A DNA stretch of 64,000 nucleotides from Anaerolineae bacterium (GTDB lineage Bacteria; Chloroflexota; Anaerolineae; S140-20), in assembly GCA_027021705.1 (NCBI GenBank), contig JALUTT010000181.1, positions 1 to 64,000 on the forward strand, read 5' to 3'. A program made the position numbers and the translations under genes. How positions within the stretch are numbered: position 1 is the stretch's first letter; the number at the start of each line of letters is the position of its first letter. Under the pieces are notes generated by a model. It was not told the origin of the DNA, did not search any database, and worked only from the letters and a program-made list of their open reading frames with translations. Of the stretch, positions 46,149-64,000 are shown piece by piece.

Positions 46149-46176
46149 AACCCTTGTCTCCCAAAAGGCCTCTCGT

Positions 46177-48642: not shown

Positions 48643-51600
48643 CGTGGCGCACCTCTACGGTCACTTCCGCGTCGTCGGATAATTCGCTCAAGGCTCCCCA
48701 ACCTGTTGCGGGTTGGAGATTGACGGCTTCCAGCGCCTTTCGTAGAGCGCCAAAGCGGGCCTTGAATCTCAGCGGCTCGAAGGCCGGTGGAACAGGCGGC
48801 TTCTCCTCCTCCTGGTGCAACGTCTGGAGCTGCGTCAGTAGTTGGCTCCGCGGCATCTGCCCGGTGATGTACCGGGCGATGGCCTCCCGGGCTATTGCTT
48901 GCGACTCGGACTTCCGCAGCCCCTGGTACAGGTCCCGCATCTCCACGTCCTGCAGCCGGCCGACCATCTCGCGTGCCGCTTGGAGCATCTCCGGCAGGCT
49001 CTGGGGCGGAGCCGAGACCTTGGTCAGCCGGCGGATGCCGGCTTCCGAGGTAGGCTCTGCCAGCGCCCGGTCAATTGTTTCCAGGATGGCCGCGACCTGC
49101 TGCAGAGCCTGCTCCAGCTCTCGCGGGGCGCCCCCCAGCGGCTTGGCCGCTTCCGTCACCGCCTTGCGCAGTTGTCGGTATCCCTGCTCCTGTTGGGTGA
49201 AGAACTGCTGGAGGGAGGCCCAGGCCGCGTCCTGACGACGCACGCCGGGCTGGTCGGGGAGGGAGCCGGCGCCGATGGCCGCGTAGAAGGCGCTGAAGGC
49301 GGCCCACTCCCCGTGGCCCACCCGTTGGCCGGGGGTGAGCAGGTCGTTGCTGTGCAGGCTCAGTTGAGCCGGGTCCTCCACGGCCAGCGGCCCCCGCCCG
49401 CGCACAACCCGCAGGTCGCGAAAGATCACCGTCAGCCGGATCAGGAAATCGGCCAGGAAGGGTTGCAGGCCAAACTCTCTTCCCAGCCGGTTCTGCAGCT
49501 CCTTGACCCGCACGCCCTCCCCGCCTTTCAGGGCCTCCTCGATGGTCTGCACGTAGGGGGAGTTGCCCAGGTCCAGGGCATAGGCGGTGCCGGCGGGCTT
49601 GACGATGCGCAGGGGCATCCCGTAATGGGCAGCGTAATCGTGCGGCGGCCCCACCTCCGGCCCCACCCGGCCCTCTCCCTTGACCAGCGCCCGGTAGAGG
49701 CTCTCCAACGCCTGGGAGGTGACGTCGGCAGTGAACTCGGGATGTTGACGGAAGCGGGCGTCCAGCAGCCGCGCCCCCAGGTCCTTGAGAGCCTCCTGCA
49801 GCGTGGCCCCGGCCGAAGGGTTCTCGCCGATGCTCACCGAGGCGCTGAGCCGGCCCTGGCTGTAAAGGGAGGCTAGGCCGGCCAGCAGGCTCTCCCGCAA
49901 CTGAAAAGCCGCGGCCGTCCAGCTCTCCGTCAGCCGGCGTCCCTCCTCGCCGCTGTACTTCTCGGCGATGTAGGCCGTGCCCGCCGGGCTCTCGGTGAGG
50001 AAGAGGATGCGGGCCAGGTTGTCCAGCTGTTGACGCAGTTGATCGTCGGCCTCCTTGGGGATCCACACCGCGCCCGGCACACCGTTCTTGGGCGGCTTTG
50101 ACGGCACAGGGTCGCCGGGGAAGCGGGGGAAGGCGATCCAGACGGTGAACTCCGCCTTGGGGTCGGGCGGGGGAAGGTGGCCGGCGCCCGTCTCCACGGC
50201 TTGGACTGTCCCCGAGCGGTTGGTGCCGCGCCACTTGATGTTCAGCTTGCGCCGGCCCTGCAGCTTGTCGGTGCCGAAGAGGTTGTTCAGAAGCCCCAAC
50301 ACGGCCTGGCGGCGTTGCTCGGTCACGTCCTGGCTCACCTTGCGCAGCTCCGCCATAGGGTCGAGCCCCAGGCTCAGCTCCACCACCACCGCCTCGCCCT
50401 CGCGCTTGAAGGTGCCCAGCAGCCGGTCGCAGAGGAGGTCCACGACCTCCTCCAGTTGCTTGCGGGCCAGGATGACCACCTGGGCGTTGAGCACGGCGGC
50501 GTTGAGGGCCGCGATGACGGCGGGGGTCATGCGCCCGCGCAGGGGCGTCCCCTTGTCCGTCAGTTGGCCCAGGATGATGCTTTCCGCCACGGCCCGCCCT
50601 CGGGCGATGCGCTTGGCGTGGCCCAGGAAGTGTTCCTCCAGAAGAGGAACGACTTTGTCACGCATGATCACTTTGGCTGCCTGCAGCGCGGGCCGGTCTT
50701 TGAGCTCTCCCTCGGAGGCTTGCTCGATGAGGTAGTGGAAGGCGCGGTGGTAGGGAATGAGGGTGCCCAACGGCTCATCGGCCAGGTCGAAGAGCATATC
50801 GTACATGACGCTGATGGCGGTGCGTTCGCGGCTCAGCATGTGGGTCACCGAGACCAGGGTGTCCACGATGGCCGGATGGAAGGGGTAGAGGGCGCGGACG
50901 GCTTCCTCAAAGCGCTTGTGGCCGTAGAGTTGATGGAGCACCTCCAGTTGTTCGCCGGGGATCTGGGCCAGACTGGCTTTGACCGCTTCGTCCAGGGCTT
51001 TCTTGCGCCCCTTTACCGGCTTGAGGACGCGCTTGCCCAGCACCTCGTACAGGTCCACGTCTTGGATGTCTACGTCCCGTCCCGCGAAGCGCCCCTTGAC
51101 ATTGTCTAGGATGTCCCGGCCCACGTCGCGCACCACGTCCTCCAGGGGGGCGTGGCGCACCACCAGGGCCCAGACGGGGAGGGCGGCGCCCTCGGCCTCC
51201 AGAAGGGCCTTGAGTTCGACCATGGGCCGCGTGCGGTCTTTGGCGTTGATGAGGAAGAGGGTGAGTTCGTCAATGAGGAACGTGACGGCGGTGAAGCCGT
51301 GGTGCTTCAGGTGGGCGGTGATGCGCTTCATGCCCTCGGCCATCTCCACGGCGAAGGCGCCACCGCCCACCTCAGAAGGTAAGGCGATGTGCGAGGCGAT
51401 CTCGCGGGCCAGGAGTTCGCGGCCCTGGGGCGTGGCCTTCTGGGCCTCGTACTCCTGGCGGGAGGTCACCACCAGGCTGCGGTTGAAGAGGGTGTCCCAG
51501 AGGGCGGGGGTGTCGGCGGCCAGGTCCTCGAACCATCCGATGACGCGCTGGAAGTAGGTGAGTTCCACGGGGGGCAGGCCCTGGCGTTCCAGTTCGCGGG

Positions 51601-52015
51601 CGACGGCCTCGTAGAGGCCCAGGCGGAAGTCGTCGGGGCGGTCCAGGCTGTTGAAGGGCACCACGAAGACGGGGCGTTTCTCCAGGATGGCGCGCACGTC
51701 ATCCGAAAGGCCGGGGATCTCCCGCGCCCAGGCGGCGGACTCCCCGCGCAGGAGCATGCCGGCGAAGGAGAGGAAGTGGGACTTGCCGGTACCGAAGGAG
51801 CCACTGACCCAGACCCCCTGGCCGGGGAAGCCCTTGTCGGCGGACTCGGCCACGCTGCTCACCACGCGCCGCAGCCCCTCGGCCACGGTGTCGGTGATGA
51901 CGTACTCCCGGGCGTGGAAGACCTTGCGCTCCTCGTCGTTGATCTCGCCCACCTTGACCACCAGGGGTGGTTTGGTGGGTGGGATAGCGATGACGTCACG
52001 GATGTGGAGGGTCAT
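48629..52015 (-). CDS. PglY/BrxC-like P-loop ATPase
   Basis: YVITD, VSGSFGTGKSHFL, FLIDEL, YPFHPA..DTLVSV...LSRERTA (PglY-like); GAGGTGA RBS; overlaps pglZ. Confidence 0.85.
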   Translation of the reverse strand: MTLHIRDVIAIPPTKPPLVVKVGEINDEERKVFHAREYVITDTVAEGLRRVVSSVAESADKGFPGQGVWVSGSFGTGKSHFLSFAGMLLRGESAAWAREIPGLSDDVRAILEKRPVFVVPFNSLDRPDDFRLGLYEAVARELERQGLPPVELTYFQRVIGWFEDLAADTPALWDTLFNRSLVVTSRQEYEAQKATPQGRELLAREIASHIALPSEVGGGAFAVEMAEGMKRITAHLKHHGFTAVTFLIDELTLFLINAKDRTRPMVELKALLEAEGAALPVWALVVRHAPLEDVVRDVGRDILDNVKGRFAGRDVDIQDVDLYEVLGKRVLKPVKGRKKALDEAVKASLAQIPGEQLEVLHQLYGHKRFEEAVRALYPFHPAIVDTLVSVTHMLSRERTAISVMYDMLFDLADEPLGTLIPYHRAFHYLIEQASEGELKDRPALQAAKVIMRDKVVPLLEEHFLGHAKRIARGRAVAESIILGQLTDKGTPLRGRMTPAVIAALNAAVLNAQVVILARKQLEEVVDLLCDRLLGTFKREGEAVVVELSLGLDPMAELRKVSQDVTEQRRQAVLGLLNNLFGTDKLQGRRKLNIKWRGTNRSGTVQAVETGAGHLPPPDPKAEFTVWIAFPRFPGDPVPSKPPKNGVPGAVWIPKEADDQLRQQLDNLARILFLTESPAGTAYIAEKYSGEEGRRLTESWTAAAFQLRESLLAGLASLYSQGRLSASVSIGENPSAGATLQEALKDLGARLLDARFRQHPEFTADVTSQALESLYRALVKGEGRVGPEVGPPHDYAAHYGMPLRIVKPAGTAYALDLGNSPYVQTIEEALKGGEGVRVKELQNRLGREFGLQPFLADFLIRLTVIFRDLRVVRGRGPLAVEDPAQLSLHSNDLLTPGQRVGHGEWAAFSAFYAAIGAGSLPDQPGVRRQDAAWASLQQFFTQQEQGYRQLRKAVTEAAKPLGGAPRELEQALQQVAAILETIDRALAEPTSEAGIRRLTKVSAPPQSLPEMLQAAREMVGRLQDVEMRDLYQGLRKSESQAIAREAIARYITGQMPRSQLLTQLQTLHQEEEKPPVPPAFEPLRFKARFGALRKALEAVNLQPATGWGALSELSDDAEVTVEVRHDAEA

Positions 52016-52039
52016 GATTGTCACCTCACAACTCACAGA

Positions 52040-55000
52040 TCATAGCCAACTGCGTCTCTCCCATTCCTCTTCCGCCTGTTCGCGTTCGATCATTGACTGG
52101 AGCAAGTCAACCATGCGGCGTGCGAAGAGACGGACACGGAGATACTCATCCTCGAGCCACGGAGATATCGCTTCCAGGCGTTTTTGATAGAACGATACGA
52201 ATCCCGAAATAACGCCGGGGGTGCTACTGATCGCTCCTTCAACTTCACCGAGTACCTTCCGATCATCAGTGCGTCGGATGATCTCACGGCTCAGCTTGTA
52301 AAAGGCATCCCCTTCGTTGAATTCCCGTAAGATAGTGGCTGTAGCCCGGAGCTTTTCGACCTCATCGGACTCAACCCACTCCGTGAGCACCGCGTAGAGA
52401 GTCTTATCAAGGCCGCCGGCGATGGCCTTCAGTACATAGGGGGCTTCCCAGCGGAACCAGAAGTTTTCGCGCAGCATCCAATTGCGAACACGCCGTAGAA
52501 CGTCAGGGTACTCTTCGCTCTCGCGAATGCTTTCCATAGCTCGTGCAAACTGGAAGGGTACGGGTTCGTATCGTCTCTCTTGGGCCTCACGTTCATAAGC
52601 TATAGTGATGCGCTGCTCGATGAAGTCTATCACCTGCATCGGAGCAATTTGGCCCAATCTGTCCAGGCATCTTTCCACATGAAAGTCAAGCTGCGGTAAT
52701 CGTCCAAAGTGCTGAATGATCTCGAGAAAGTCTTGTGGGTCCTCGAACTCCACAGCCCAACCCTCCCCTGTGCTATCCGACCATGATAGTACCTCAGCAA
52801 TGTGCCGCAAGACAGCTTCGTCGCCACGAGCCGCAATAGTTTTGAGAACCTCAACCGCGAGAGCAGGGTTATGTGGTGCGTATTGCCGTGTCAGCCACAC
52901 CATCTCATGATCCAGGGCCGCTGTATTACAAGCCACGAGTTGGCGTAGCATCTCCCAGTCTTCATCCTCCATTTGACGCCAGTCCACAAACCGGAAGCTA
53001 TGCGCAGCAGCCAGCCAGAGGATCGCATCGCCGCTGGTGGTCCAATGTTTGAGGTATCTTTGCGCTATCTCGGGGACGCTTTTCCGCAATCCGGCAATCA
53101 CGAGCCCAAGGTGATGTTTAAGGGTCAACTCTTCAACTACGGCGCGGTCTATGAGCTGCTGGGCCAGATCAGGATGCTGTTCACCCAGACGCTGCAATAG
53201 CCGATTGAGCCAAGTAGTACCTGTTTCGCCAACAGTACGCGCTTGATGAGCAATTGTCTCCAAGTCGCGCAAAGCTCGATCAAAAGTGTCTGGCTTAAGC
53301 TGACCGAGGTAACGCTCGACAGCCTCCTGGCGCCGCCGCTCGGCTTCCCGCCAATCCAATTCCTTGTCCGGTTCCTCCGCGTCCCGGCGATGCCATCCAA
53401 CCAGCACTCGGTAAAGTTGATAGAGTTGATGGCTGTTAAGCCGCTCACTAAGGCGGTCCAACGCCTCATCTTCATAAGCAGCCCACCGTCTGGCATGCCA
53501 GAGCCATTCCGAGATTGCGTCCAGAACGGGAAGGTCCGCTGTCTCAACCACGTCAGAGAAGAAACGGGCAGTATTCACACAGTCAGGTCGAAGCCATTCA
53601 CGGATTTCATCTGGCACGCGAACTATTGAGGGGAAATGTGGGATCGCTCCATCCAGAGCCTGAACAATACGGAGTCGCTCAGCGGGAGAAGTTGCTTGAC
53701 GATATGCGTTATAGAGGATGTCTAGCGCCTGCTGTCGGATGTGTCTCAAGGGCTCGGCAGGAGTGAGCAGGCCCCGATGGAGGATCACTTTGAAAGGTTC
53801 CGTTGGATCGGCCTCAGCGCTATGTAACTCCATCGACAACATTGCTTCTACCAGTTTCAAGGCCAGGTCGAGGTTCTCCGTGAAATCCTCAGCCAGCCAC
53901 CGGGGAATGGCTTCCAGAAGCGTCAGTTGCACAGCATAGGGCTTGCGCGGCTTAAATTCGGCAATTTCAGTCAACACTTTGCGCGCTTCTTCTCTCACAT
54001 AGGCATAACTCGAATCGTGAGGGCAATATCTGGCAAGTTTATGCAAATAGGTGATAGTATCTCGCAAGGCGCTATACTGGGTGCGCTTCAGTATTTCGAC
54101 AGCCTGACCCAACACCATCTCGTGGCTAATCTCATAAGCACCACCCCAAGGGGCACGATAGGTCTCGGGAGGCTGTTCTCTGCCATCCACGATGCGGGCG
54201 ACGATCGCCAACGTATCGTCGGCTCTCAGATAAGCCACGTTCTGCAACCAATCGAGAATGGCATAGCGGGCTATGTTGCCTTGGGTATCGATAGCCCGAG
54301 ACAGTTCATCGAGTCTGCGACCCAAGAGCACACCTGCTTCACGGGATTCTCCCTTGACCTCTGCCTTGGCCAAGTTAGTCAGGATTTCTTTGGCTTTCAG
54401 ATCGAAGAATGGTTCGATGACTTGTTTTTGGTAGTCGGCGCGTCGAGTTGTGGGGTCAAAGTAGTGGCTCACCAGGATGTGGTCGGCCAAGACCTCAGAG
54501 GCGATCCGAATGGTCTGCCAGTAGCGATCTATTAGGCCTGACGCTTCCAGTCGTGTAACAATGCGTTCTTCTTCAGATGGTGAGATACCGACGACCTCTT
54601 GCACACGTTGGCGGAGAGTGTCGTTGGTCAGCTCAATTGTGCCCAGAGCAGCAAGGATTTCGAGATAGTGCACATATCGATCATCGTAGCCAGCCTCGGC
54701 CAAGTCACGGATGAGTTCATGAAAGTAGCGGGAAAGCACTTCATCTCTGGTAAGTCTGGTTACATCTTCGCCACGCTGAACCAGGCGTGCGCCCAATTGG
54801 GCGAGCAGCGGGTTACCTTCGGCCACAGCAATCAGTGCCCGACGCGCGTGCTGATCCTCGATATGGTAAGGTTCGCTTTGAAGCAGACGATCGATGTCAG
54901 CATTTGTCAGTGGACCAAGTTCCAAGTAAGCGATTTCATCCCCTGAGATTTGAGGGAAGCGAGCTGCTATATACTCAACGAATACGCTGCGTGTGCTGAG

Positions 55001-55633
55001 AATGAGTTTCACCTTACCGGCGTAGTCTGGATTAACCAGTACCTCGCGAAGGTGAGAAAGCGGCGTAAAACGATGGGCGTCATCCACGACGATTACGTGC
55101 TGTTGGTCCCGATCGAGAGTAGCCAAGTCGTATTCGATGCTTTCAGCTTCAGTGCGGGCGTACCACAGTTTGACATCTTCGGGAACGATCTCTGACAAGG
55201 CGAGTAGCAATCGAGTCTTACCGATACCCCCAGGACCATGAAGAACAATGATACGTTTTTGTTCTTGGAGCCATGCCGCCACTTGCTGAAGAGTCTGCTC
55301 CCGTCCCACCATTTCTCCCCTGTAGCATCCAAGCGCAGTTTGCTCAATCCGCACTGCAAAATCCTGAACTGTGAGTAAGGATCGAAATCCAGTATGAACG
55401 GCCTGCCATATAGCGACTGCATCTGGGCCTTTGATAATACAGACTATGTTGTTATCACCAGTTATAACGACAAGGTCGTGCGCGTCTCCTCCTAATGCCA
55501 CAGCCCGATCACCAGTGGCAAGGGTAATCCGTCCTGTTTGAAGGGCTTGGCGCAAGGTGGCGATGTCGGCATCAGTGTAGGTGCCGGCTGCAATGCGGTC
55601 GAGAACACGCTTCAATTCGTTAAACTCCGTCAT
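52040..55633 (-). CDS. STAND-class (NLR/Avs-like) ATPase with N-terminal EAD10-like helix and amyloid-like motif and a long helical-repeat C-terminus
   Basis: LHGPGGIGKTRL, IVVDDAH, ILSTR, EGNPLL; N-terminus ELKRVLDRIAAGTYTDADIATLRQAL + ATGDRAVALGG..VVITGDNNIV. Confidence 0.8.
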   Translation of the reverse strand: MTEFNELKRVLDRIAAGTYTDADIATLRQALQTGRITLATGDRAVALGGDAHDLVVITGDNNIVCIIKGPDAVAIWQAVHTGFRSLLTVQDFAVRIEQTALGCYRGEMVGREQTLQQVAAWLQEQKRIIVLHGPGGIGKTRLLLALSEIVPEDVKLWYARTEAESIEYDLATLDRDQQHVIVVDDAHRFTPLSHLREVLVNPDYAGKVKLILSTRSVFVEYIAARFPQISGDEIAYLELGPLTNADIDRLLQSEPYHIEDQHARRALIAVAEGNPLLAQLGARLVQRGEDVTRLTRDEVLSRYFHELIRDLAEAGYDDRYVHYLEILAALGTIELTNDTLRQRVQEVVGISPSEEERIVTRLEASGLIDRYWQTIRIASEVLADHILVSHYFDPTTRRADYQKQVIEPFFDLKAKEILTNLAKAEVKGESREAGVLLGRRLDELSRAIDTQGNIARYAILDWLQNVAYLRADDTLAIVARIVDGREQPPETYRAPWGGAYEISHEMVLGQAVEILKRTQYSALRDTITYLHKLARYCPHDSSYAYVREEARKVLTEIAEFKPRKPYAVQLTLLEAIPRWLAEDFTENLDLALKLVEAMLSMELHSAEADPTEPFKVILHRGLLTPAEPLRHIRQQALDILYNAYRQATSPAERLRIVQALDGAIPHFPSIVRVPDEIREWLRPDCVNTARFFSDVVETADLPVLDAISEWLWHARRWAAYEDEALDRLSERLNSHQLYQLYRVLVGWHRRDAEEPDKELDWREAERRRQEAVERYLGQLKPDTFDRALRDLETIAHQARTVGETGTTWLNRLLQRLGEQHPDLAQQLIDRAVVEELTLKHHLGLVIAGLRKSVPEIAQRYLKHWTTSGDAILWLAAAHSFRFVDWRQMEDEDWEMLRQLVACNTAALDHEMVWLTRQYAPHNPALAVEVLKTIAARGDEAVLRHIAEVLSWSDSTGEGWAVEFEDPQDFLEIIQHFGRLPQLDFHVERCLDRLGQIAPMQVIDFIEQRITIAYEREAQERRYEPVPFQFARAMESIRESEEYPDVLRRVRNWMLRENFWFRWEAPYVLKAIAGGLDKTLYAVLTEWVESDEVEKLRATATILREFNEGDAFYKLSREIIRRTDDRKVLGEVEGAISSTPGVISGFVSFYQKRLEAISPWLEDEYLRVRLFARRMVDLLQSMIEREQAEEEWERRSWL

Positions 55634-57072
55634 CAGTGGTCCCTCTCTTCACCTGTTTCTCTGGCCAAACGTGCTAGGTTATGAGACACGGTGTTTGCCA
55701 GTTCCTGATCGCCGGCCTGGATAGCTAGCCGTAAAGCCTCAGCGTAGAGAACTCGGGATCGAACGATGTCACCTTCAAATTGACAGGCCAAAGCCAAGTT
55801 GTTGAGTGCAATGGCTTCACCTTTCCGATTCGCGAGGCTCTGAAAAAGCTGGCGCGCTTGTTCAAGGTTTTCACGGGCCAGATGAAACTCTCGTTGGTGC
55901 AAATGGATTTCACCGATTGCTGCCAACGTATGAGCCTCGGCGTTCTTGTTGTTCAGCATACGCCATAGACTCAGTGCCTTCTTCCGATACGTGAGCGCCT
56001 CATCGAAGGCGTAGCGGGTCTGATGGATCGCAGCGATATTATCCAGCAGCGTAGCCTGTTCAACTTTGGACCCTAGCCCTTCAAAGAGTGTTAACGCTCG
56101 CTCGTTGTAGTCCAAAGCACGTTCAAAATCACCAATTGCACTGTAGAGGCTGCCCAGATTGGCTAGAGATATTGCTTCCTGCAAAGGAGCTCCGATCTCA
56201 CGGAAGATCTCCAGGGCCTGTTCGCTATAAAGCCGGGCCTTATCAAGTTGTCCTAGACACTGCGCCAGTTCACCCAGGTTTCCCAGAGCAACCGCTTCAT
56301 GGAAGCGATGACCCGTCTGGACAAAGAGTTCCAGTGCCCTGGAACCATAGGTTAACGCTTTGGAATACCACGCATCTCGTTCAGCTGATGAAACAACGTC
56401 TGCTTTGTTTCGACACGTAATTGCCAGATTGTTTAGTGTCGAGGCTATGGCGACCTGATCATCTTGAGTACGGTATAAAGCCAGTGCTTGTTCATAGAAC
56501 GAGATGGCATCGTCCCATTGCTCTAAATCGGCATAAGCCCGGCCCATGTTCTGCAAAACGGTTGCTTCGCCTGAAGAGTCACCTTCGACACGGAAGAGTT
56601 GCAATGCTTGTTCGTAATAGTGCAAGGCTCCAGTTATTTTACCCTCAGCCTGGGATACTAATCCCAGCCCGTTAAGAGCCCTGGCCTGGCAAGGACGGTC
56701 ATCCAATTGACGAAAGATGGTCAGCGCCTGCTCATAACATTCACGGGCTCGAGACCACTCGCTCAGTGTATACCACGCAGCACCCAGGTTATTCCAGAGA
56801 GCACCCACGTCGTGGGTTTGACCCTGGTTTTGCGCGGCAGCGAGCCCGCGTTGATACCATGCAATGGCTTCCCGCCACAAAGCGCGTTGCTCAAGAAAGG
56901 GGCGCACTGCCCATACGTAGGCTAATATTAGCCCTGCATCACCGTTGATGTCGTTCACCCAGGTCCAAGCACGGCGAATTTGCTCCAATTCACCTTCAAG
57001 CCGCTGCCAGTCACCAGGGTTAGATTGGATCAGGGAAAGATAATAGTACGCGTACCGTTCCCAGGCACTCAC
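55633..57072 (-). CDS. Stand-alone TPR-repeat protein (sensor 3)
   Basis: ~40-aa repeats A..LNNLG..Y..L.....A...YEQAL; GTG start; TGATG coupling to the STAND gene. Confidence 0.9.
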   Translation of the reverse strand: MSAWERYAYYYLSLIQSNPGDWQRLEGELEQIRRAWTWVNDINGDAGLILAYVWAVRPFLEQRALWREAIAWYQRGLAAAQNQGQTHDVGALWNNLGAAWYTLSEWSRARECYEQALTIFRQLDDRPCQARALNGLGLVSQAEGKITGALHYYEQALQLFRVEGDSSGEATVLQNMGRAYADLEQWDDAISFYEQALALYRTQDDQVAIASTLNNLAITCRNKADVVSSAERDAWYSKALTYGSRALELFVQTGHRFHEAVALGNLGELAQCLGQLDKARLYSEQALEIFREIGAPLQEAISLANLGSLYSAIGDFERALDYNERALTLFEGLGSKVEQATLLDNIAAIHQTRYAFDEALTYRKKALSLWRMLNNKNAEAHTLAAIGEIHLHQREFHLARENLEQARQLFQSLANRKGEAIALNNLALACQFEGDIVRSRVLYAEALRLAIQAGDQELANTVSHNLARLARETGEERDH

Positions 57073-57074
57073 GT

Positions 57075-58598
57075 TTAACCGGTCGTTGATATCTGCTCCA
57101 AACGTTCTCGAAGTTTGGTCAGGTGAAAAGCATGTTGCTCTACCTCAGGATCACCGACTGATCGTTCGTAATCCACAACAATTTGGAGAAGTTCCACTGC
57201 ACGCGGTAAATCGCCTGCGCGTTCGTATAACCGGCTTAGGTCCCAGGTGTAGATCGCTTCCCCTCCCTTATCTCCGATCTCGCGAGCGATATGTCGTGCC
57301 TGTTCATAGTACTCTAATGCCTTCTGGATATCTCCCAACTGCCAGTAGACCAATCCCAGCCGGCTCAACCGGATGCTTTCTCCCCATCTATCGCCTATGT
57401 CACGAGCAATCTTCAAGGCTCGTTGGTAATATTCGATAGCCTTGGACGTGTCGCCCAAATCCTGCAGAATGCGGCCCAGATTGCTGAGCCACGCCCCCTC
57501 GTTTTGCCGGTCACCCACACGGTGAGCAATTTCCAGGGCTTGTTCGTAACAGTGTGTAGCTTCTTGCCACTCGCCCAGGTCAGCGTACGCCATTCCCAGG
57601 ATACCCAAGCGAGCCCCTTCTGCTTGTAAATCTCCAATCTCCCTGGCAATCTCCACAGCACGTTTAACGTACTCAATCGCCCTGTCCGGATCGCCCAGAA
57701 CAAGATACGTTCGGCCCAGGTTACTCAGCCACGTCCCCTCACTCAGCCGGTCACCAATGTCACGGGCTATCTGCAACGCCTGCTTGAAACATTCAATAGC
57801 CTTTTGCCAGTCTCCCAGGTCAAGCCAGCCACGCCCCAGATTGCCCAACCAGACCCCCTCATTTCGACGGTCACCCGTGTCACGGGCAAACCGAAGAGCC
57901 CGCTCATAGTACGAGATAGCCGTTCGCACTTCTCCCAGGTCAGCATAGGCGAGACCCAGATTCCCCAGATCAGCTCCTTCGCTGCGCCGATCCCCTATCT
58001 CTCGATCAATCGCCAATGCTTGTTCGAAGCAGGAGATGGCTCGTTGGGTCTCTCCCAAGCTCAGGAGGGCCAACCCAAGATTACCTAGCCAGATAGATTC
58101 CTGTTTGCGGTTCTGTAACTCGTGGTGAATCGTCAGGGCCGCCTCAAAGTGCCGGATAGCTTTGTCAATCTCCCCAATGTCTAAGTAAACCAGCCCCAAG
58201 TTGCCCAGACGGCTACCTTCTGCGCCCCGATCACCAACATCCTGTGCAATTCGCAGAGCCTGTTCATAACACTCGATGGCCTTGCGTGCTTCGCCAAGGC
58301 GGTAATACGCTAATCCCAGGTTCGCCAACATTACACCCGCTACCTGATTACCGTTCGGAAGTGTTCTTGCCACCACCAAGCCTCGCTCATTCCAAGCGAT
58401 GGCCTCCAGCCACAGTCCGCGCATCTCCTGAAAGGGGAAGAAAGCTTGAACGTAAGCCAGGACCAAATCCTTGTTCTCCTCTTTGCTCACCCAGGCCCAG
58501 GCACGACGAATCTGGTCGAGCTCACGTTCGACCGCTTGCCAATCGCCGTTTTGAGTCACTGCCAGATAGTAGCGCGCGTGCCGCTCACGGGGGCTCAT
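57075..58598 (-). CDS. Stand-alone TPR-repeat protein (sensor 2)
   Basis: Regular 40-aa repeats GDR..EG..LGNLG..Y..LG....AI..YEQAL.IAR; start MSPRERH, ATGA-coupled. Confidence 0.9.
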   Translation of the reverse strand: MSPRERHARYYLAVTQNGDWQAVERELDQIRRAWAWVSKEENKDLVLAYVQAFFPFQEMRGLWLEAIAWNERGLVVARTLPNGNQVAGVMLANLGLAYYRLGEARKAIECYEQALRIAQDVGDRGAEGSRLGNLGLVYLDIGEIDKAIRHFEAALTIHHELQNRKQESIWLGNLGLALLSLGETQRAISCFEQALAIDREIGDRRSEGADLGNLGLAYADLGEVRTAISYYERALRFARDTGDRRNEGVWLGNLGRGWLDLGDWQKAIECFKQALQIARDIGDRLSEGTWLSNLGRTYLVLGDPDRAIEYVKRAVEIAREIGDLQAEGARLGILGMAYADLGEWQEATHCYEQALEIAHRVGDRQNEGAWLSNLGRILQDLGDTSKAIEYYQRALKIARDIGDRWGESIRLSRLGLVYWQLGDIQKALEYYEQARHIAREIGDKGGEAIYTWDLSRLYERAGDLPRAVELLQIVVDYERSVGDPEVEQHAFHLTKLRERLEQISTTG

Positions 58599-60019
58599 CT
58601 CGTCCTTCCCCTGCGCATGAAACGCCGTGCTATTTGTGCAAGACGAGCAAGAGGTTTCTGGATGTTTCGCTTCGCTGCCGGCCCCGTTTGTTCCTGAGCT
58701 GGCCACTCAGGCGATTCATTGACCTGTATCAAGGTGCTCTCTCGTTCCAGAACGAGACTGCGATTCCGGCGAATAACCGCGCTAAGGTGTTCATCTCCGA
58801 TTTCTTGAGCAAGGCTCAAAGCCTGTTCATAATACATTACCGCCCGATGTTCCTTGCCTAGACCTTCGGCAAGATTGCCCATTGCCGCCAGCAAGCGCGC
58901 TTCCATCTGCTTCTGTCCTATTTCCCGGCTTATGCGCAACGCTTGCTCGTAGTATCGAGCTGCCCTTTCGAGTTTGCCCAGACGATGATAAGCCTGTCCA
59001 AGGCTCGCAAGCCGACCACCTTCGACAACCCTGTTGCCTATGTGGCGTGCAGCAACCAGGTTCTGCTCAAAACACTGAATAGCACGCTCAATCTCACCTG
59101 TTTCCAGGTAAATATCACCAAGACCGCCTAATAGATCGCTCTCTTGAATCCTGTCACCCATTAAACGCGCCAAATTCAATGCATCCTCAATAAGTTCTAC
59201 CGCCTTTGAAAGGTTACCTTCTATCCGAGCAATACTTGCCAGGCTATACAAAAACCCTATCTCCAGGTCCTGATCTCCTGCCAAGAGAGCGTGCTTCAAT
59301 CCTTTTCGGTATGTTTGGCGTGCTTTGCGCCAATTGCCAACATCGAGGAGTGCATTCCCTCTCATCTGGAGTGCAAGCGCGATAGATCTATGATCACGCT
59401 GCTTAGAAGCAAGAACATACATCTGTCTTTGCAGTCTTTCCGCCTGACGTAGATTACCCAGGCGACGGAAGGCGCTTTCCATGCTCATCAAGGCAACAAA
59501 CTCTGTCTGCCAGTCTTTGGCGTTCTGCGCCAGAATCTGTGCACGTTTGTAGCATTCAAACGCTTTTGTTGTATCCCCCATCGCCAAATAGGCACTACCA
59601 AGCCGCAAAAGTATCAGGGATACAATACGGTTCCCGTGTTGCTCTAGAGACACGGATGAGAGGAGCGAATAGGCTCGCTCACAGCAATCGGCAACCTGCT
59701 TTGAATCGCCCAGGTTGTCGTGGACTTCACTGAGTCGCAAAAGAGAGAAAAGTTCGGCGATTTTGTCCTGTTTGCTCCGCGTTACCTCTAGCTCGCGCTG
59801 TGTCCATTCAAGCGCCTCTTTCCACAGACCGCGCAGTTGTAAGTGCGGATAGAACGTTTCTACGTAATCCGATAGCAGTTGCGGATCCCCTTGAGCAGCA
59901 ACCCAATTCCACGCATGCCTTATTTGCGGCCATTCGGCGTCGAACCATTGCCAATCCTTAAGATGGGCTTTGGCATATTCCAGGTAAAATCGAGCGTGTC
60001 GTTCCAGCACCTTGCTCAT
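58595..60019 (-). CDS. Stand-alone TPR-repeat protein (sensor 1)
   Basis: TPR-like repeats (LGSAY..G...KA..CY; LGQAYHRLG..ERA..YYEQAL); ATGA-coupled to the NB-ARC gene. Confidence 0.88.
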   Translation of the reverse strand: MSKVLERHARFYLEYAKAHLKDWQWFDAEWPQIRHAWNWVAAQGDPQLLSDYVETFYPHLQLRGLWKEALEWTQRELEVTRSKQDKIAELFSLLRLSEVHDNLGDSKQVADCCERAYSLLSSVSLEQHGNRIVSLILLRLGSAYLAMGDTTKAFECYKRAQILAQNAKDWQTEFVALMSMESAFRRLGNLRQAERLQRQMYVLASKQRDHRSIALALQMRGNALLDVGNWRKARQTYRKGLKHALLAGDQDLEIGFLYSLASIARIEGNLSKAVELIEDALNLARLMGDRIQESDLLGGLGDIYLETGEIERAIQCFEQNLVAARHIGNRVVEGGRLASLGQAYHRLGKLERAARYYEQALRISREIGQKQMEARLLAAMGNLAEGLGKEHRAVMYYEQALSLAQEIGDEHLSAVIRRNRSLVLERESTLIQVNESPEWPAQEQTGPAAKRNIQKPLARLAQIARRFMRRGRTR

Positions 60020-61164
60020 AGTCCCATCTTTTCCATCATTTCCGCCGCATAGTCGGCCAGCAGCGCATGCATCCAGTAGCGCTCGCCCCGACGCTCCACC
60101 AGACCGCGTTGGATAAAGCGCGAGATGGTCGCTTCAGCTTCTTCCACCGAACATTCCCACACATGAGCAGCAGCCTTGATCTCCCACGTAAGTGGCTCGC
60201 CGCCGAAGACGGCCAGCATGGCAAAGCGTTCTTGGTCGGTCTTGCTCAGCCGCTCCACGCTCATCCCCAGAATCGCCTGAAGGGAGACGGGTTGGTCTTC
60301 GGCCAGACCTAGGCGTCCTTCCGCCTGGAGCAGCTGCAAACGGGCTTCCCGGTGCTCCATGAGCTCATCCAGCAGCCGTTGCATCCGCGTTGGCACGTCA
60401 GCCTCGCTGGCTAGCAACCGCCCTGCCAAGGTCAGAGCCAAAGGCAGGAACTCTAGCCGTTCACAGAGACGCATTGCGTTTTGCTCATCAGCGGCAACAG
60501 CTTCGGGTGCCAAGCGGCGTAATAGTGCCAGAGCAGCCTCCGGTTTCAGCACATCTACCCGCAGTGTCCGTCCGCGTGTGGCCAATGTATAAGCAATGGG
60601 TGCCTCACGGGTGGTAAGGACCGTACGACAACGAGGACCGGCGACCATGAAGTACTGACCGTGGGTTACCTCCCAAACATCATCCACAATCAGCAGCACG
60701 CGTCGGTGATAAAGAACGGCCCGGAGACGATCACGACAGGCATTCTCATCGCGCTCTGGTAGCAAATCTACCCCAAGGGCCCGACCCCACCCATCGAGGA
60801 GGATGCGAATGGTTGGGTTAGGCCCCAAGGCTACCCAAAGCACACCATCGGGGAAGAGCTTGGGAATGATCTCTAACCGTCCTAAGGCGATGGCTAGGGT
60901 TGTCTTGCCGATGCCGCCCATCCCACGCAGAGCTACTGGGGGGATATCAGTCGCCTGCTCATCATCAAGAGCCAGCAGGTCGAACAAGCGAGTCAGGTCC
61001 TCGTCACGGCCGAGAACACCCTGGGGTGGGAGCGGCGGCGTCATAAACGGTGGCGGCGTTCGCGTTGCTGGCATACCGACGGTAGCAGCCGCTTGGTCAC
61101 CGATAGCTAGGCCGTAGACGGTGCCATGAATCGTCACCTTGTGCCGATCGAGTTCGTTGCTCAT
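60016..61164 (-). CDS. NB-ARC protein lacking a C-terminal sensor domain, with N-terminal amyloid-like motif
   Basis: LGRDEDL, LRGMGGIGKTTLA, FPDGVLWV, LLIVDDVW, VLTTR, FLPLAL, YWMHALL, then a stop 13 residues later. Confidence 0.9.
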   Translation of the reverse strand: MSNELDRHKVTIHGTVYGLAIGDQAAATVGMPATRTPPPFMTPPLPPQGVLGRDEDLTRLFDLLALDDEQATDIPPVALRGMGGIGKTTLAIALGRLEIIPKLFPDGVLWVALGPNPTIRILLDGWGRALGVDLLPERDENACRDRLRAVLYHRRVLLIVDDVWEVTHGQYFMVAGPRCRTVLTTREAPIAYTLATRGRTLRVDVLKPEAALALLRRLAPEAVAADEQNAMRLCERLEFLPLALTLAGRLLASEADVPTRMQRLLDELMEHREARLQLLQAEGRLGLAEDQPVSLQAILGMSVERLSKTDQERFAMLAVFGGEPLTWEIKAAAHVWECSVEEAEATISRFIQRGLVERRGERYWMHALLADYAAEMMEKMGL

Positions 61165-61220
61165 AGACTTCTCCTCATGGCCGTTCCACTAGCCGCCCAG
61201 CGGTTTTGCCTATGGAACGC

Positions 61221-61763
61221 TCAGGATTCGCTTGCTTCTCCAGATGCTGGTGGTTCAGCTCCTTCTACGTTCACATTAACCAGTGCCTGGTTGCCAAGAG
61301 CCATCCCCCTGGCTTCGCCGACATTCACGCTGTATTTCCCCTGTTGCACCACGTTCTGGTCACCGGTCACGATGATGCTGCCTTCAATCTTTCTAGCTGC
61401 CACGCTGTGTTCACCGCTAGCAATTACGGTTACGCCCATAGCCTTTGCCTTTTCCCACAATTGGGCCACTTCAGCAGCCAGTTCTTCGTCCTCGGACAGG
61501 ATTTTCCTGAGTTGCAGGCGCAGGGCGGCTTGGGCGTCCCCATCTTTCGGCGCTGCGGCCACATCCTGCACTGCTTCCCGTGCCGCTGGCTTGGCCTCCA
61601 CCTTGGAGCGCAGTTTGCCCCACAGCGCCTTGGCTTTCTCCCAGGCGTCGCCACCCAGTTTCTTGCCTGCTTCCTCAGTCGCTCTTTCACCTGCCTTGAG
61701 CAGGTAAGGCAAGAAAGGGGTAAGAAAAGCGGCTACGTCCTTCGCCAGCATTGCTATGTCCAT
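61221..61763 (-). CDS. Small helical Bell/HeLo-like putative effector with two C-terminal amyloid-like motifs
   Basis: FLTPFLPYLLKAGE..EEAGKKLG.DAWEKAKALW helical domain followed by a G/N/Q/V-rich beta-type tail. Confidence 0.7.
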   Translation of the reverse strand: MDIAMLAKDVAAFLTPFLPYLLKAGERATEEAGKKLGGDAWEKAKALWGKLRSKVEAKPAAREAVQDVAAAPKDGDAQAALRLQLRKILSEDEELAAEVAQLWEKAKAMGVTVIASGEHSVAARKIEGSIIVTGDQNVVQQGKYSVNVGEARGMALGNQALVNVNVEGAEPPASGEASES

Positions 61764-61778
61764 CGTAAGCTCCTTCTG

Positions 61779-64000
61779 TTATCCCATCACCACATACGGA
61801 TACGGCTCCACGTCCCCGATGATGCTCCGCAGCCCCTCCCGTACCTCCGGATCCTCGATGTCCGGCGCCTCTTCCGGCAAAGTGATGAGCCGGGCCACCC
61901 AGCGGTAGAAGGGCGTTTTGTCCTGGGCCTCTTCCGCCAGGGTGAGGAAGATGTTGGCCTGGGCCTCCGGGCTCCACCCCGTCCAGCCGTACAAATCCCG
62001 ATTGACGCCGTCGAAGCGGAAGAAGCGCTCGTGGAGGACGTCTACCTTCTTGGGCTTGCGGCCCACCAGCACTTTCTCCTCGTCGAAAGGGATGGGCCGG
62101 CAGTCCCAGTCCATGCACTCGCGCACGAACTGCTCCGCCGAAATGGGCCGGCCGCCGTAGTAGACCGCCCGCAGGGGCTCGAACTTGGGGTTTCGCGCCA
62201 GAATACCGGCGACCTCTGCCGGGGTGAGCGGCCGCTCCCGCAACGGCGGCTGGGCGGCGAAGATGTCTTCGATGAGGTCGCAGATGTAGTCGCGGATTTC
62301 GAACTGCATCTCTTTATGCCAATCGAAATCGTGAAGGAGATCCGAGGATTCCCAATCTGCTAATGCCGAGACGACCTCCTCTTCAAGTTGATAAATGTCT
62401 CGCACGCAGCCATCGACTTCTCTTTGTAGTTCCACCCACCTTTGAGCAAGTTGCTCAAGATTGCCGCGATATGCTTGCTGGCGAGTTTGTAAGTCGGCTA
62501 GTGACTCGAAATGCACGTCTCGTATCAGGTGATACGGATGTAACGCGTTGATCTGCTCCACGAGGCTTGTCATTTCTTGTGAAAGTGCTATCAGTGTCTC
62601 GGCTGCAGTTCCATCTGGCACTGGGATCGGGAACCCTTTGATGTGATGGCCATAGATGTCGAAATACTGCTGGCGCACCCGGCTTGCCGTTCTCGCCACG
62701 TAGAAAGCAAACAAAGACGAATTCATCAACGCTGCCAAATGGAAAGTAAGTTCCCCTTCATCCAATTTCGGGTACGCAACCTGGGCTGGATGATCCACCA
62801 AGAATCGGCCTATACTGTCACCGAAGGCATGTGGGCGCAACACCACGCTGGGCCAGGCAATCTTCGGCACGCCCAGGCGGGCGTTGGTCTGATGGAGCCG
62901 GAAAAAGGGGATGCCAGCGTCCTTGTAAGTCATCCGTTCCCAGGTGGCTCGCGCCCAAAGATATTCCTTGTACCTCAGTAGGTAACGGTAAGCGTTGGGA
63001 TACCGTTCGGCGAAATCGGCGATAAGTTCGCCTGTCTCCTTATCATGGGTGTAAAGCACATACGTCTGCTCCTTCTTCCGGTTCCCGTGCCAAGTGACGG
63101 TCCAGTTGCGGATGTTCTTCCCCCGCAGGCAGGGGATGCAGATTTCCCGCTCCAGCTTGTTCCGGCGGATGAAGCTCTCCGTGATGTAGTCGCAGAAGAC
63201 CGGGTCGGCGTTGGTCATGAAGTCCACACCGATGCGCGCGTAGTCGGCCAGGGTCTTGTCGGAGGCGGCCCGGATTTTGCCCAGCAGGTCGCGGGCGCTG
63301 CGGCGCAGGGTCCAGGGATGAGAGCGGAAGTGCTCCTGCCGCTCCCAATAGTGACCGGCATAGTCCTTGAAGACGGCACCCCCTCCCCGGCCCTCCCACC
63401 CCCCTCCGGCTCCCCCCTGAGAGGGGGGAGTGAGCAGGCAGTGCAGGGCGGCCCATGTCTCCTCTCGCGTCCGGCCCGCCGGCTGGTAGGTGGCCAGCAC
63501 CTCCACCGGCGCATCGGCGGGCACGGGGGCATCGTCCTCCGGCCGCTGCACCACGATGAGGGCGGGGTAGGCGCCGGCCTCGAAGACCTGGGCGTCGGTC
63601 AGGTCGGCGAAGAAGAGCAGGCGGTAACGCTCGCCCGCCAGCAGCGCGGCCAGCTTCTTGCCATAGGCCTGCTTGGCGAACTTGCCGCTGGTGATGTAGC
63701 CCAGGTAGCCACCGGGCACCAGCAGTTCCAGCCCCCGTTCGACAAAGGGTACCGAGAGGTCAAAGTTGCCACTGGCTGTCTTGTAGTTTGTGCGCAGGTA
63801 CTGGACGAAGTCCACCCGCTCCCAACTGCCGTTCACCGGTGCGACCACCTCGGCCCCCTGACGGTGGATGCGCACGTAGGGCGGGTTGGCGTTGACCACG
63901 TGGAAGCCCTTGGCCAGGGCGTCCCGCAGGTCCACCCGCAGGTGGGTTAGCTCCCGGCCGTACCAGCGGGCCACAGGGTCCGTCTCCCGGCGGGGCGGCC
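61779..64000 (-). CDS. PglX-like / type IIG N6-adenine DNA methyltransferase, 5' part outside the window
   Basis: GFHVVNANPPY, DLSVPFVERGLELL..GG.LGYITS.KF, LRGKNIRNW, AALMNSSL (TaqI-C-like); frame is open to the window edge. Confidence 0.85.
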   Translation of the reverse strand, partial: PPRRETDPVARWYGRELTHLRVDLRDALAKGFHVVNANPPYVRIHRQGAEVVAPVNGSWERVDFVQYLRTNYKTASGNFDLSVPFVERGLELLVPGGYLGYITSGKFAKQAYGKKLAALLAGERYRLLFFADLTDAQVFEAGAYPALIVVQRPEDDAPVPADAPVEVLATYQPAGRTREETWAALHCLLTPPSQGGAGGGWEGRGGGAVFKDYAGHYWERQEHFRSHPWTLRRSARDLLGKIRAASDKTLADYARIGVDFMTNADPVFCDYITESFIRRNKLEREICIPCLRGKNIRNWTVTWHGNRKKEQTYVLYTHDKETGELIADFAERYPNAYRYLLRYKEYLWARATWERMTYKDAGIPFFRLHQTNARLGVPKIAWPSVVLRPHAFGDSIGRFLVDHPAQVAYPKLDEGELTFHLAALMNSSLFAFYVARTASRVRQQYFDIYGHHIKGFPIPVPDGTAAETLIALSQEMTSLVEQINALHPYHLIRDVHFESLADLQTRQQAYRGNLEQLAQRWVELQREVDGCVRDIYQLEEEVVSALADWESSDLLHDFDWHKEMQFEIRDYICDLIEDIFAAQPPLRERPLTPAEVAGILARNPKFEPLRAVYYGGRPISAEQFVRECMDWDCRPIPFDEEKVLVGRKPKKVDVLHERFFRFDGVNRDLYGWTGWSPEAQANIFLTLAEEAQDKTPFYRWVARLITLPEEAPDIEDPEVREGLRSIIGDVEPYPYVVMG

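Follow-up and report, generated by a model that had tools for sequence, protein, structure and literature searches.

Bell effectors and their pairing with NOD-like receptors (NLRs) through bacterial amyloid signalling sequences (BASS) were described by Dyrka et al. (bioRxiv 10.1101/2020.01.06.895854). A 2024 preprint still described the function of these pairs as open, and reported that Bab/Agp amyloid signalling gives E. coli protection against phage T5 (Ibarlosa et al., bioRxiv 10.1101/2024.11.07.622273). Effector-associated domains (EADs) were proposed as homotypic couplers of effectors, and EAD10 was characterised as mixed alpha+beta (Kaur et al., PMC7159879). EAD10 also heads the TPR-GreA/B-C-PIN architecture (TPR, tetratricopeptide repeat), to which Agp belongs (PMC8195603). 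Accessory genes embedded in bacteriophage exclusion (BREX) operons were surveyed in 2026 and include GmrSD/BrxU, PARIS-like OLD-TOPRIM, Shedu, HEPN and Schlafen, the embedded effectors being nucleases; in a word search of the main text of this survey, NB-ARC, TPR and EAD did not occur (PMC12839542). The subject of the present work is a cassette of six genes, designated g1 to g6, which is located at positions 52040-61763 within a BREX-like operon of an Anaerolineae bacterium. The window, i.e., the whole stretch of DNA that was analysed (64,000 nucleotides), comprises positions 1-64000 of the 75,783-bp contig JALUTT010000181.1. The contig belongs to the metagenome-assembled genome (MAG) GCA_027021705.1 (5.19 Mb, 183 contigs, completeness 94.9%, estimated contamination 4.5%, GC content 0.66).

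The six open reading frames (ORFs) are all located on the minus strand and occupy the entire 9.7-kb gap between pglX and brxC/pglY. The small helical protein g1 (61763..61221, 180 aa) is followed by g2, a stand-alone NB-ARC NTPase (61164..60016, 382 aa), by the TPR proteins g3 (60019..58595, 474 aa), g4 (58598..57075, 507 aa counted from the ATG) and g5 (57072..55633, 479 aa), and by g6, an NTPase of the STAND class (signal transduction ATPases with numerous domains; 55633..52040, 1197 aa). The same order had been proposed in an earlier reading of this DNA made without database searches (the sequence-only reading), and the Pfam scan agreed with it. Scans with Pfam and PADLOC (PADLOC-DB version 2023) also found no nuclease, TIR, SIR2 or protease family on g2 or g6, as that reading had it. 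Taken as a whole, the gene content suggests that the cassette is probably a horizontally acquired abortive-infection module of the NLR type, with two sensors and one executioner, lodged in a cargo slot of the BREX operon.

The candidate executioner g1 begins with M-D and a hydrophobic stretch, which forms the first helix. A family search gave 718 matches, and the relatives are mostly 141-172 aa long; g1 reaches 180 aa because its tail is longer than theirs. D2 is nearly invariant in 97 family sequences. The AlphaFold2 model of g1 contains helices at residues 3-108 with predicted local distance difference test (pLDDT) values of 66-90, starting with the helix 3-14, and residues 112-180 are disordered, the pLDDT of the tail being below 50. 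The helical domain is taken here as aa 1-108, and the disordered tail as aa 110-180. Bell effectors are short proteins (~120-140 aa) with a hydrophobic N-terminal helix and an acidic residue at position 2 or 3, and g1 agrees with this apart from the length of its tail; its relatives are located directly upstream of NLR-like genes. A total of 76 genome loci with g1 relatives were fetched, originating from Chloroflexota, Nostocales, Acidobacteriota, Methanotrichaceae and Microbispora. No Pfam family was found for the helical part of g1, nor for that of the 97 family members at E up to 1. Neither g1 nor g2 matched any PADLOC family, and no relatives of g1 or g6 were found in the viral contig collection. 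Note that a Bell model is absent from the Pfam, NCBIfam and PADLOC libraries searched. The ESM Atlas clusters nearest to g1, which we treat as a lead only, contain proteins of 137-145 aa, some of them with RHIM (12-19% of members) or HetE-N (15-22%).

The tail of g1 was found to consist of two halves, motif A (aa 110-139; 61347..61436, minus strand) and motif B (aa 141-166; 61266..61343, minus strand), which match different NTPases of the cassette. A hidden Markov model (HMM) of motif A built from relatives only found the N-terminus of g6 at E 9.7e-7 among the 53,824 ORF segments of the assembly. In addition, Smith-Waterman comparison of the g1 tail with residues 1-140 of g6 gave z 4.4, a score that 1 of 1000 shuffles reached. 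For motif B, hhalign comparison of 42 relatives' tails with the strongly conserved N-termini of 47 g2-family proteins gave a probability of 97.3% and E 2.7e-11 over 22 columns. The comparison of the g1 tail with residues 1-140 of g2 gave z 5.0, a value reached in none of the 1000 shuffles. The shuffle tests of the tail against g3, g4, g5, BrxC and PglZ were not significant. Among the 120 g1-family members listed (of 718 matches), 48 carry motif B. The sequence-only reading had listed g1 as a helical effector and pointed out that bacterial NLRs can signal to Bell-domain proteins via amyloid motifs. The features that define a Bell-type executioner are found in g1, and its C-terminal tag matches the N-termini of both NTPases, as in Bell/BASS-NLR pairs; the division of the tail into two parts and the Pfam EAD10 domain on g6 had escaped that reading.

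The same pairing was observed in other genomes (fetched genome and metagenome loci are given L-numbers below). At 46 loci, the next ORF of 300 aa or more lies no further than 500 bp behind the gene for a small g1-like protein, and in 30 of them, the tail of this protein matches the N-terminus of that ORF beyond all 300 shuffles. The type of tag varies among lineages and co-varies within pairs, for example in Nostoc, L065 and L035. Five other loci encode a g1-like protein with a two-part tail, and in all five, motif B or a g2-type tag was found within the first ~215 residues encoded by the gene or reading frame that comes next; L012 has it in the same ORF, which continues into an NB-ARC part. 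In the Roseiflexus and Chloroflexus loci L011 (2832-6128), L013 (10777-14102) and L014 (10958-14554), a NACHT-type protein of ~1100 aa was observed after the Bell-like protein with a two-part tail; motif B is located there at residues 183-203, behind an N-terminal domain of ~180 aa without assignment. A caspase encoded at L015 (819-1925; Peptidase_C14, 1.5e-17) has the same two-part tail as the Bell-like protein of that locus, and two different effectors may answer one sensor there.

The NTPase g6 carries EAD10 (PF19954) at aa 1-54, with 37.4 bits vs the cut-off of 24.1 (E 2.6e-9). The EAD10 region is located at 55436-55633, the motif-A-like stretch at 55442-55537 and the P-loop at 55208-55252; a helical C-terminal region of ~900 aa follows. 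Weak matches to nSTAND5/AAA_16 were found, and the P-loop and Walker B are intact. In PADLOC, g6 gave only weak rows for OloA (1.8e-6), mad8 and PDC-M16A, and the models of known anti-phage STAND proteins (Avs, bNACHT, etc.) were not matched. No solved relative of g6, including its long helical C-terminal part, was found by sequence. The g6 family (119 matches) has EAD10 at the N-terminus in many rows, DUF4062 in 11, and trypsin, EAD8, HTH-Mrr or SMEK in single rows. Besides the locus of the window itself, 17 metagenome loci with g6 relatives were fetched. The g6 homologue was usable in 14, which were screened, and some of the neighbouring genes from 13 of these were scanned with Pfam. In seven of these loci (L098-L104), the gene directly upstream encodes a PNP_UDP phosphorylase, and all seven phosphorylases end in a matching tag. 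The g6 relatives of L095-L097 have caspase or CHAT partners, of which those of L095 and L097 end in a matching tag and the C-terminus of that of L096 shows none; the C-terminal tag of the PNP_UDP or caspase/CHAT effector matches the g6 relative in 9 of the 10 pairs. A second EAD10-type copy was found on the neighbouring effector, namely on g1 in the cassette and on PNP_UDP or caspase/CHAT proteins elsewhere. Among the 97 g1-family members, 32 match EAD10 at E up to 1, the best at E 1e-7. As a separate observation, the C-terminus of the CHAT protein and the N-terminus of the adjoining g6 relative at L097 (2157-7157) share another tag, so the coupling motif clearly co-varies there.

The presence of EAD10 raises the question of how the tags act. 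The same parts could work if EAD10 were a folded globular alpha+beta adaptor that binds its like in the manner of Death folds and recruits g1 without amyloid templating. This would agree with the description of EAD10 in PMC7159879 as a small, non-enzymatic, mixed alpha+beta homotypic effector coupler, and g6 does match all of the first 55 positions of the EAD10 profile, including the helical part that g1 lacks. However, g1 and the PNP_UDP and caspase partners carry just the beta part of EAD10 (~25-55 residues), which is predicted to be disordered in the g1 model. Moreover, the composition of the tags (G, N, Q, V, I) and their placement at the effector C-terminus and the sensor N-terminus resemble those of BASS motifs, and the TPR-GreA/B-C-PIN architecture, which is EAD10-headed in cyanobacteria, signals through an amyloid motif in E. 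coli. We consider the folded adaptor possible, though on the whole rather unlikely.

The second NTPase, g2, matched Pfam NB-ARC (1.6e-24), and its profile matched AfsR (3.7e-21), Apaf-1 (7.7e-19) and plant NLRs including ZAR1. Walker A/B, TTR, LPLAL and the MHD-like His are invariant in 37 sequences, the residues G81-T89, D161-D162, T184-R186, L240-L242 and H366 being present in g2; its P-loop is located at 60895-60936 and its tag (aa 8-29) at 61078-61143. The protein ends after the winged-helix part at residue 382, and repeats do not follow in the same polypeptide; the TPRs sit in g3-g5. Of the 120 g2 relatives listed, 48 have a length of 375-395 aa and none is listed with a TPR family, the search having been confined to proteins of 210-669 aa. 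The three candidate trans sensors g3, g4 and g5 matched TPR_12 at 3e-32, 9.1e-78 and 1.9e-54, respectively, and only generic TPR models in PADLOC. Their mutual identities are 31% for g3-g4 and 36% for g5-g4. An N-terminal head of ~95 aa is conserved in all 12 aligned trans-encoded TPR proteins, g3 and g5 among them. Fused NLRs of Acidobacteriota are collinear with g2 and then g4: their g2-like part ends ~10-20 residues before the point at which residue 5 of g4 aligns. Because the heads are shared and the fused NLRs are collinear, g2 together with g3, g4 or g5 is predicted to form one NLR that is cut between the winged helix and the repeats, with a predicted contact between the two parts. The DNA of g3-g5 (55633-60019) contains repeat families spaced by 120 nt with 60-76% identity, mirroring the 40-residue TPR units; this internal conservation is modest and below the 80-90% reported for hypervariable NLR repeats.

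A comparison with other loci indicated that the split arrangement is conserved: NB-ARC proteins without repeats, like g2, form a widespread family, and three or four TPR genes come after them. In L015, the caspase with the two-part tail comes first, then one TPR gene, then the genes for a g1-like protein (68% identical) and a g2-like NB-ARC (77%, 381 aa), and finally four TPR genes. L115 encodes a protein of 497 aa that shares 50% identity with g1 in its first part (E 4e-39) and 75% with g2 in the remainder, a natural fusion of a g1-type domain to a g2-type NB-ARC; three TPR genes follow, and g4 is 55% identical to the second of them. In L116, a 510-aa NB-ARC protein (66% identical to g2) is followed by three TPR genes as well, and in both L115 and L116 the TPR genes overlap successively by 4 bp. 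An apparent g1-g2 fusion in an ORF of L012 was set aside, as this assembly contains X residues and fragmented TPR ORFs. Among metagenomes of Chloroflexota, the split NB-ARC/TPR operon is a common find. The sequence-only reading had listed one NB-ARC gene, three TPR genes and a large STAND ATPase. Both STAND NTPases are intact and all three TPR proteins were recovered; what that reading missed is that g2 and g3-g5 make up a conserved split NLR.

Taken together, these data suggest the following scheme. The executioner would be g1, a Bell-like bundle with its hydrophobic first helix buried and with an unstructured G/N/V-rich tail in two halves. Sensor 1 would be g6, whose EAD10 N-terminus bears a copy of tail half A, and sensor 2 would be the split NLR, in which the N-terminus of g2 bears a copy of half B and one of g3, g4 or g5 would complete the receptor in trans by docking via its ~95-aa head. 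Binding of a phage-derived ligand by the helical or TPR sensor may lead to oligomerisation of the ATPase, and the clustered N-terminal tags could then form a beta-arch or amyloid-like template. This template would convert the matching half of the g1 tail, the first helix of g1 would be freed to attack the membrane, and the infected cell would die. We infer these steps, together with a role in phage defence and a functional tie to BREX; the layout of the genes, their domains and NTPase motifs, the foreign origin of the block, the tag matches, the conserved split operon and the fusion in L115 are seen in the sequences themselves.

A number of observations weigh against this scheme. Fold searches with the g1 model returned only the background of helical bundles, with a best Foldseek E of 0.92 (PDB) and a best VIA-align Z of 5.5, and the g1 family profile gave nothing below E 0.17 against PDB sequences. 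The name "Bell-like" is based on features, gene context and phyletic spread, since there was no Bell model to search with and the fold matches were background only. At the level of the genome, the motif B HMM finds g2 only weakly (E 0.11, rank 6), and the best non-self match of the HMM of the g2-family N-terminus is indeed the g1 tail, yet only at E 0.33. The EAD10 match of g1 itself has 20.7 bits vs the Pfam cut-off of 24.1 (aa 132-162 vs profile positions 33-63). The match between tail and N-terminus is absent in 16 of the 46 loci mentioned above. The simple shuffle test of the tail of the g1-like protein of L015 against the N-terminus of the g2-like protein was not significant (z 1.7). In the five other loci with two-part tails, there is no motif A sensor nearby, and what look like two halves of the tail might form a single long tag. 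Motif A also occurs on at least nine further ORF segments of the genome (E up to 4.4e-4), and g6 is not necessarily the sole or main partner of g1. In addition, the cassette is known here from its sequence alone. Finally, longer g2 relatives carry added HTH, BTAD or alpha/beta-hydrolase N-terminal domains, and HTH and BTAD occur in this position in transcription regulators.

The latter point bears on the possibility that the NB-ARC/TPR genes encode a signal-transducing regulator of the AfsR/MalT type, or belong to a death pathway that serves development or kin recognition in a multicellular bacterium, rather than to phage defence. The transcription factor AfsR is the closest solved relative of g2, some g2 relatives have the HTH or BTAD N-domains just mentioned, and Bell/NLR pairs, whose function the 2024 preprint left open, are enriched in multicellular lineages. 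However, g2 itself has no DNA-binding domain, its N-terminus is a tag shared with the Bell-like protein, and a Bell-like domain is fused to NB-ARC in L115. Hallmarks of conflict systems are present as well, namely the location among defence genes, a foreign composition, a patchy spread and the exchange of effectors (caspase, PNP_UDP). This makes a purely regulatory or developmental role improbable, and the abortive-infection module is preferred here.

The cassette's own genome (G000) encodes further proteins with such tags. The ORFs concerned are located at C120:92074-92556, C144:47675-52105, C77:110237-115627, C36:3-2672, C40:18400-18993 and C51:9887-13033 and on the contigs C88, C162, C73, C178 and C175. 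Among the many other ORFs with motif A are a 161-aa ORF with a C-terminal tag (E 1.4e-11) and six of more than 1000 aa besides g6. A g1-like domain (37% identity) is present in an ORF of 890 aa, and motif B was found on further proteins of the genome. This large NLR/tag repertoire is predicted to allow cross-talk.

The cassette differs clearly in composition from its surroundings. The GC content is 0.512-0.551 for g3-g6 and 0.573-0.598 for g1-g2, and that of brxC and pglZ is 0.676-0.709; the GC content at third codon positions (GC3) is 0.50-0.62 in the cassette genes vs 0.87 in brxC and pglZ. The two 5-kb windows inside the cassette (GC 0.528 and 0.530) are the fourth and fifth lowest of the 1843 windows of the assembly (mean 0.661, standard deviation 0.030). 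This deviation is far beyond chance. The genes are tightly packed, with an ATGA overlap at g2/g3 and at g3/g4, a gap of 2 bp between g4 and g5 and a TGATG overlap at g5/g6; g1 and g2 are spaced by 56 bp. The stop codon of pglX is separated from the ATG of g1 by 15 bp, and the stop codon of g6 from the ATG of brxC (52015) by 24 bp. The sequence-only reading had described six tightly packed, co-oriented genes with GC content lower than that of the flanks, nested between pglX and brxC/pglY of a BREX-like operon. It had left out the g1-g2 junction; the junctions it gave were recovered from the sequence as claimed, and gene-wise GC, GC3 and the genome-wide 5-kb windows, computed as it had proposed, agree on the composition. 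Gene calls and an independent assembly, described next, confirm the nesting.

The source genome is a MAG in 183 contigs with 4.5% estimated contamination, so an artefact of assembly or binning that joined the DNA of two organisms was considered as the origin of the low-GC block. The independent assembly X1, from a run that is probably the source sample, contains a 9979-nt contig that covers 51987-61965 at a depth of 60.8, and the depth of other X1 contig pieces on the flanks is 57-69. This contig crosses both junctions at a depth like that of the flanks, and both flanks are same-strand parts of one BREX operon. Since a single contig spans the block at flank-like depth, it is not a chimeric join, and an artefact is extremely improbable. 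The distinct composition and the coverage by the X1 contig indicate that the block is real and foreign. No flanking direct or inverted repeats beyond chance-level matches of 14-31 nt and no recombinase ORF were found in 51000-64000.

The distribution of the cassette was then compared with that of its BREX flanks. In a sample of 401 genomes of the phylum (the own genome counted in), relatives of g6 were present in 5 and close relatives of g2 in 3. Assemblies of runs from other studies (X2, X3 and X4) hold 52008-61062, i.e., g6 to g2, at ~90-95% identity. Past 61062, contigs of X2 and X3 continue into sequence unlike the window, and past 52008, an X2 contig does likewise. At 90% likeness, the BREX flanks are almost uncovered in X2-X4 (trace depth in a few bins and short X4 pieces on brxC), and this absence was not used as evidence. 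An X4 contig matches the 5' end of brxC as far as 52016, beyond which the two differ. One X1 contig, with a depth of 8.79, joins 52016 to 61781, skipping 9764 nt; its shorter side has 28 letters vs the bar of 31, so it is a hint only, and such a joint would put pglX straight onto brxC with an overlap of the ATGA type. A second copy of the 3' end of pglX or of the 5' end of brxC was not found in the assembly. The only related BREX locus found (PglX 62% and BrxC 59% identical) belongs to the genome G099 (L119, G099:C155, 5549-7596). It contains an AbiEi/AbiEii pair (236 aa and 271 aa, Pfam 2.6e-28 for the latter) between pglX and brxC, the stop of the pair overlapping the ATG of brxC. Right after pglX, two fragments resembling residues 1-41 of brxC were found, and the junction looks like a scar of repeated insertions. 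The sequence-only reading had proposed to look for the six-gene set in other genomes and for a methyltransferase gene directly adjacent to pglY. On the first point, g2-g6 are present in other metagenomes at ~90-95% identity, in contigs that leave window-like sequence at both ends. On the second, the low-depth X1 joint is the hint mentioned, and the related locus in G099 has the AbiE pair in that place.

These results are relevant to the relation between the cassette and BREX. The cassette may be an autonomous mobile defence or cell-death module that landed in a permissive BREX junction, is independent of BREX and senses no BREX inhibitors. The NB-ARC/TPR operon of L015, L115 and L116 occurs without a brxC, pglX or pglZ match in the fetched stretches of these loci, the X2 and X3 contigs that carry the cassette genes leave window-like sequence beyond its ends, and the related junction in G099 holds a different cargo together with two brxC 5' fragments. 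On the other hand, no terminator-like or promoter-like site was found on the coding strand in 51500-62300. Given this, the junctions of 15 and 24 bp and the good ribosome-binding sites, BREX transcription must cross the cassette to reach brxC-pglZ-brxL, so the expression of the two is coupled at least, and the cassette is probably co-transcribed with the BREX operon. Abi-type cargo that recurs at one BREX junction would also fit the idea of a backup layer in PMC12839542. On balance, we lean slightly towards an autonomous module. The functional tie to BREX is the weakest part of the sequence-only reading, because parts of the cassette travel without BREX.

The order of genes on the minus strand is three small ORFs, pglX, the six cassette genes, brxC/pglY, pglZ and brxL, and the BREX core genes are all present. 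The 3' two thirds of pglX lie in the window (61779..64000), and the whole gene extends to contig position 65168 (~1129 aa; Eco57I 1.8e-17, PADLOC PglX 1.5e-35, GC3 0.815). The brxC/pglY gene (48629..52015, minus strand, GC3 0.872) matched PADLOC BrxC at 6.9e-62 and NCBIfam PglY at 3.9e-30, below the cut-off. The pglZ gene (46177..48642, minus strand) matched PADLOC PglZ at 1.7e-36 and Pfam PglZ at 1e-8. The brxL gene, listed at 44589..46394 on the minus strand with a true start that is probably later, matched PADLOC BrxL at 2e-111, Pfam BrxL_ATPase at 4e-103 and TIGR02688 with 428.6 bits, above the cut-off. The NCBIfam matches of PglY and PglZ are closest to the BREX-2 models, yet under their cut-offs, and the gene order is pglX-[cassette]-brxC-pglZ-brxL; the order pglX-brxC-pglZ-brxL is unusual. 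The three minus-strand ORFs upstream of pglX (161, 283 and 256 aa; L007 1404-3470, corresponding to contig positions 65404-67470) had no Pfam, PADLOC or NCBIfam match and occupy a place where brxA/brxB-like genes might be expected. In codons 751-900 of pglX (window 62469-62918), GC3 falls to 0.60 vs 0.79-0.96 in codons 1-600 and 0.74-0.85 in neighbouring segments, and this stretch may be a mosaic or exchanged methyltransferase segment beside the insertion. Upstream of BREX (L007 3912-11600), a cluster of glycosyltransferases (GT4, GT2, PMT-like) with a glycoside-hydrolase-like protein was observed; one GT4 protein matches GT4-conflict (5.8e-16).

A more far-reaching version of the scheme can be proposed. 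The cassette could be a hub with a prion-like executioner, in which two unrelated NLRs template separate halves of the tail and one NB-ARC engine takes three interchangeable TPR subunits, giving four specificities for one death switch. The pglX|brxC junction would then be a dedicated slot for the exchange of abortive modules, an NLR hub here and AbiE in the relative, and failure or inhibition of BREX would be answered by suicide. We regard this version as speculative and unlikely in its entirety. The cassette offers a compact natural test bed for the question of whether one executioner can hear two NLRs via separate halves of its tail. If the split NLR is real, a bacterial NLR that obtains its sensor repeats in trans from alternative subunits would have an easy way to widen or swap its specificity. 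The cassette also raises the question of whether BREX operons have a defined slot for abortive back-ups, and it connects the nomenclatures of Aravind (EAD10) and Saupe (BASS-type tags), since both apply to the same proteins. To our knowledge, Bab/Agp is the sole amyloid-signalling defence pair that has been tested, and it lacks an NTPase.

The word "novel", used for the cassette in the sequence-only reading, is too strong, as every component is of a described kind. In the parts of the literature that were searched, we found neither a split NB-ARC/TPR operon described nor a tail whose two parts serve two sensors. The cassette is similar to the Bell/BASS-NLR pairs of Dyrka et al. in having a small helical protein with an acidic residue 2, a hydrophobic first helix and a G/N/Q/V/I-rich C-terminal motif that is repeated on the N-terminus of the NB-ARC/STAND protein of a collinear gene at close spacing. 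The spread is alike (Chloroflexota, Nostocales, Acidobacteriota, Methanotrichaceae and actinomycetes), the tag is also found on CHAT effectors there, and fungal amyloid motifs are also carried by PNP_UDP effectors. In contrast to these pairs, one tail is available here for two NTPases, the NLR is split into an NB-ARC protein and three TPR genes, the location is inside BREX, and g6 is of an nSTAND5-like STAND family and not of NB-ARC or NACHT. The likeness to Bab/Agp lies in a small Bell-related executioner with a C-terminal tag beside a large sensor whose N-terminus bears the same tag. EAD10, the family found on g6, is also the N-terminal domain in cyanobacterial proteins of the Agp architecture (PMC8195603). 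The sensors differ, however, being two STAND NTPases here and not TPR-GreA/B-C-PIN; the helical domain has ~108 aa in g1 vs ~80 aa in Babybell, and the cassette is known from its genes alone.

The EAD-coupled STAND and ternary conflict systems (Kaur et al., PMC7159879; PMC8195603) also have EAD10 on the core NTPase and on the effector of the adjacent gene, as well as a variable N-terminal effector or adaptor position, as seen across the g6 and g2 families. Unlike in these systems, the effector g1 has only the beta part of EAD10, and there is no vWA-MoxR or GTPase core. The proposed scheme has a counterpart in HET-S/NWD2 and related fungal pairs, in which a pore-forming helical protein has its C-terminal prion-forming motif templated by the N-terminus of an NLR; the cassette differs in being bacterial, in fold and motifs and in its split NLR. 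Finally, like the accessory genes embedded in BREX operons (PMC12839542), the cassette would represent a second layer of defence within the core operon, with BREX genes on both sides.

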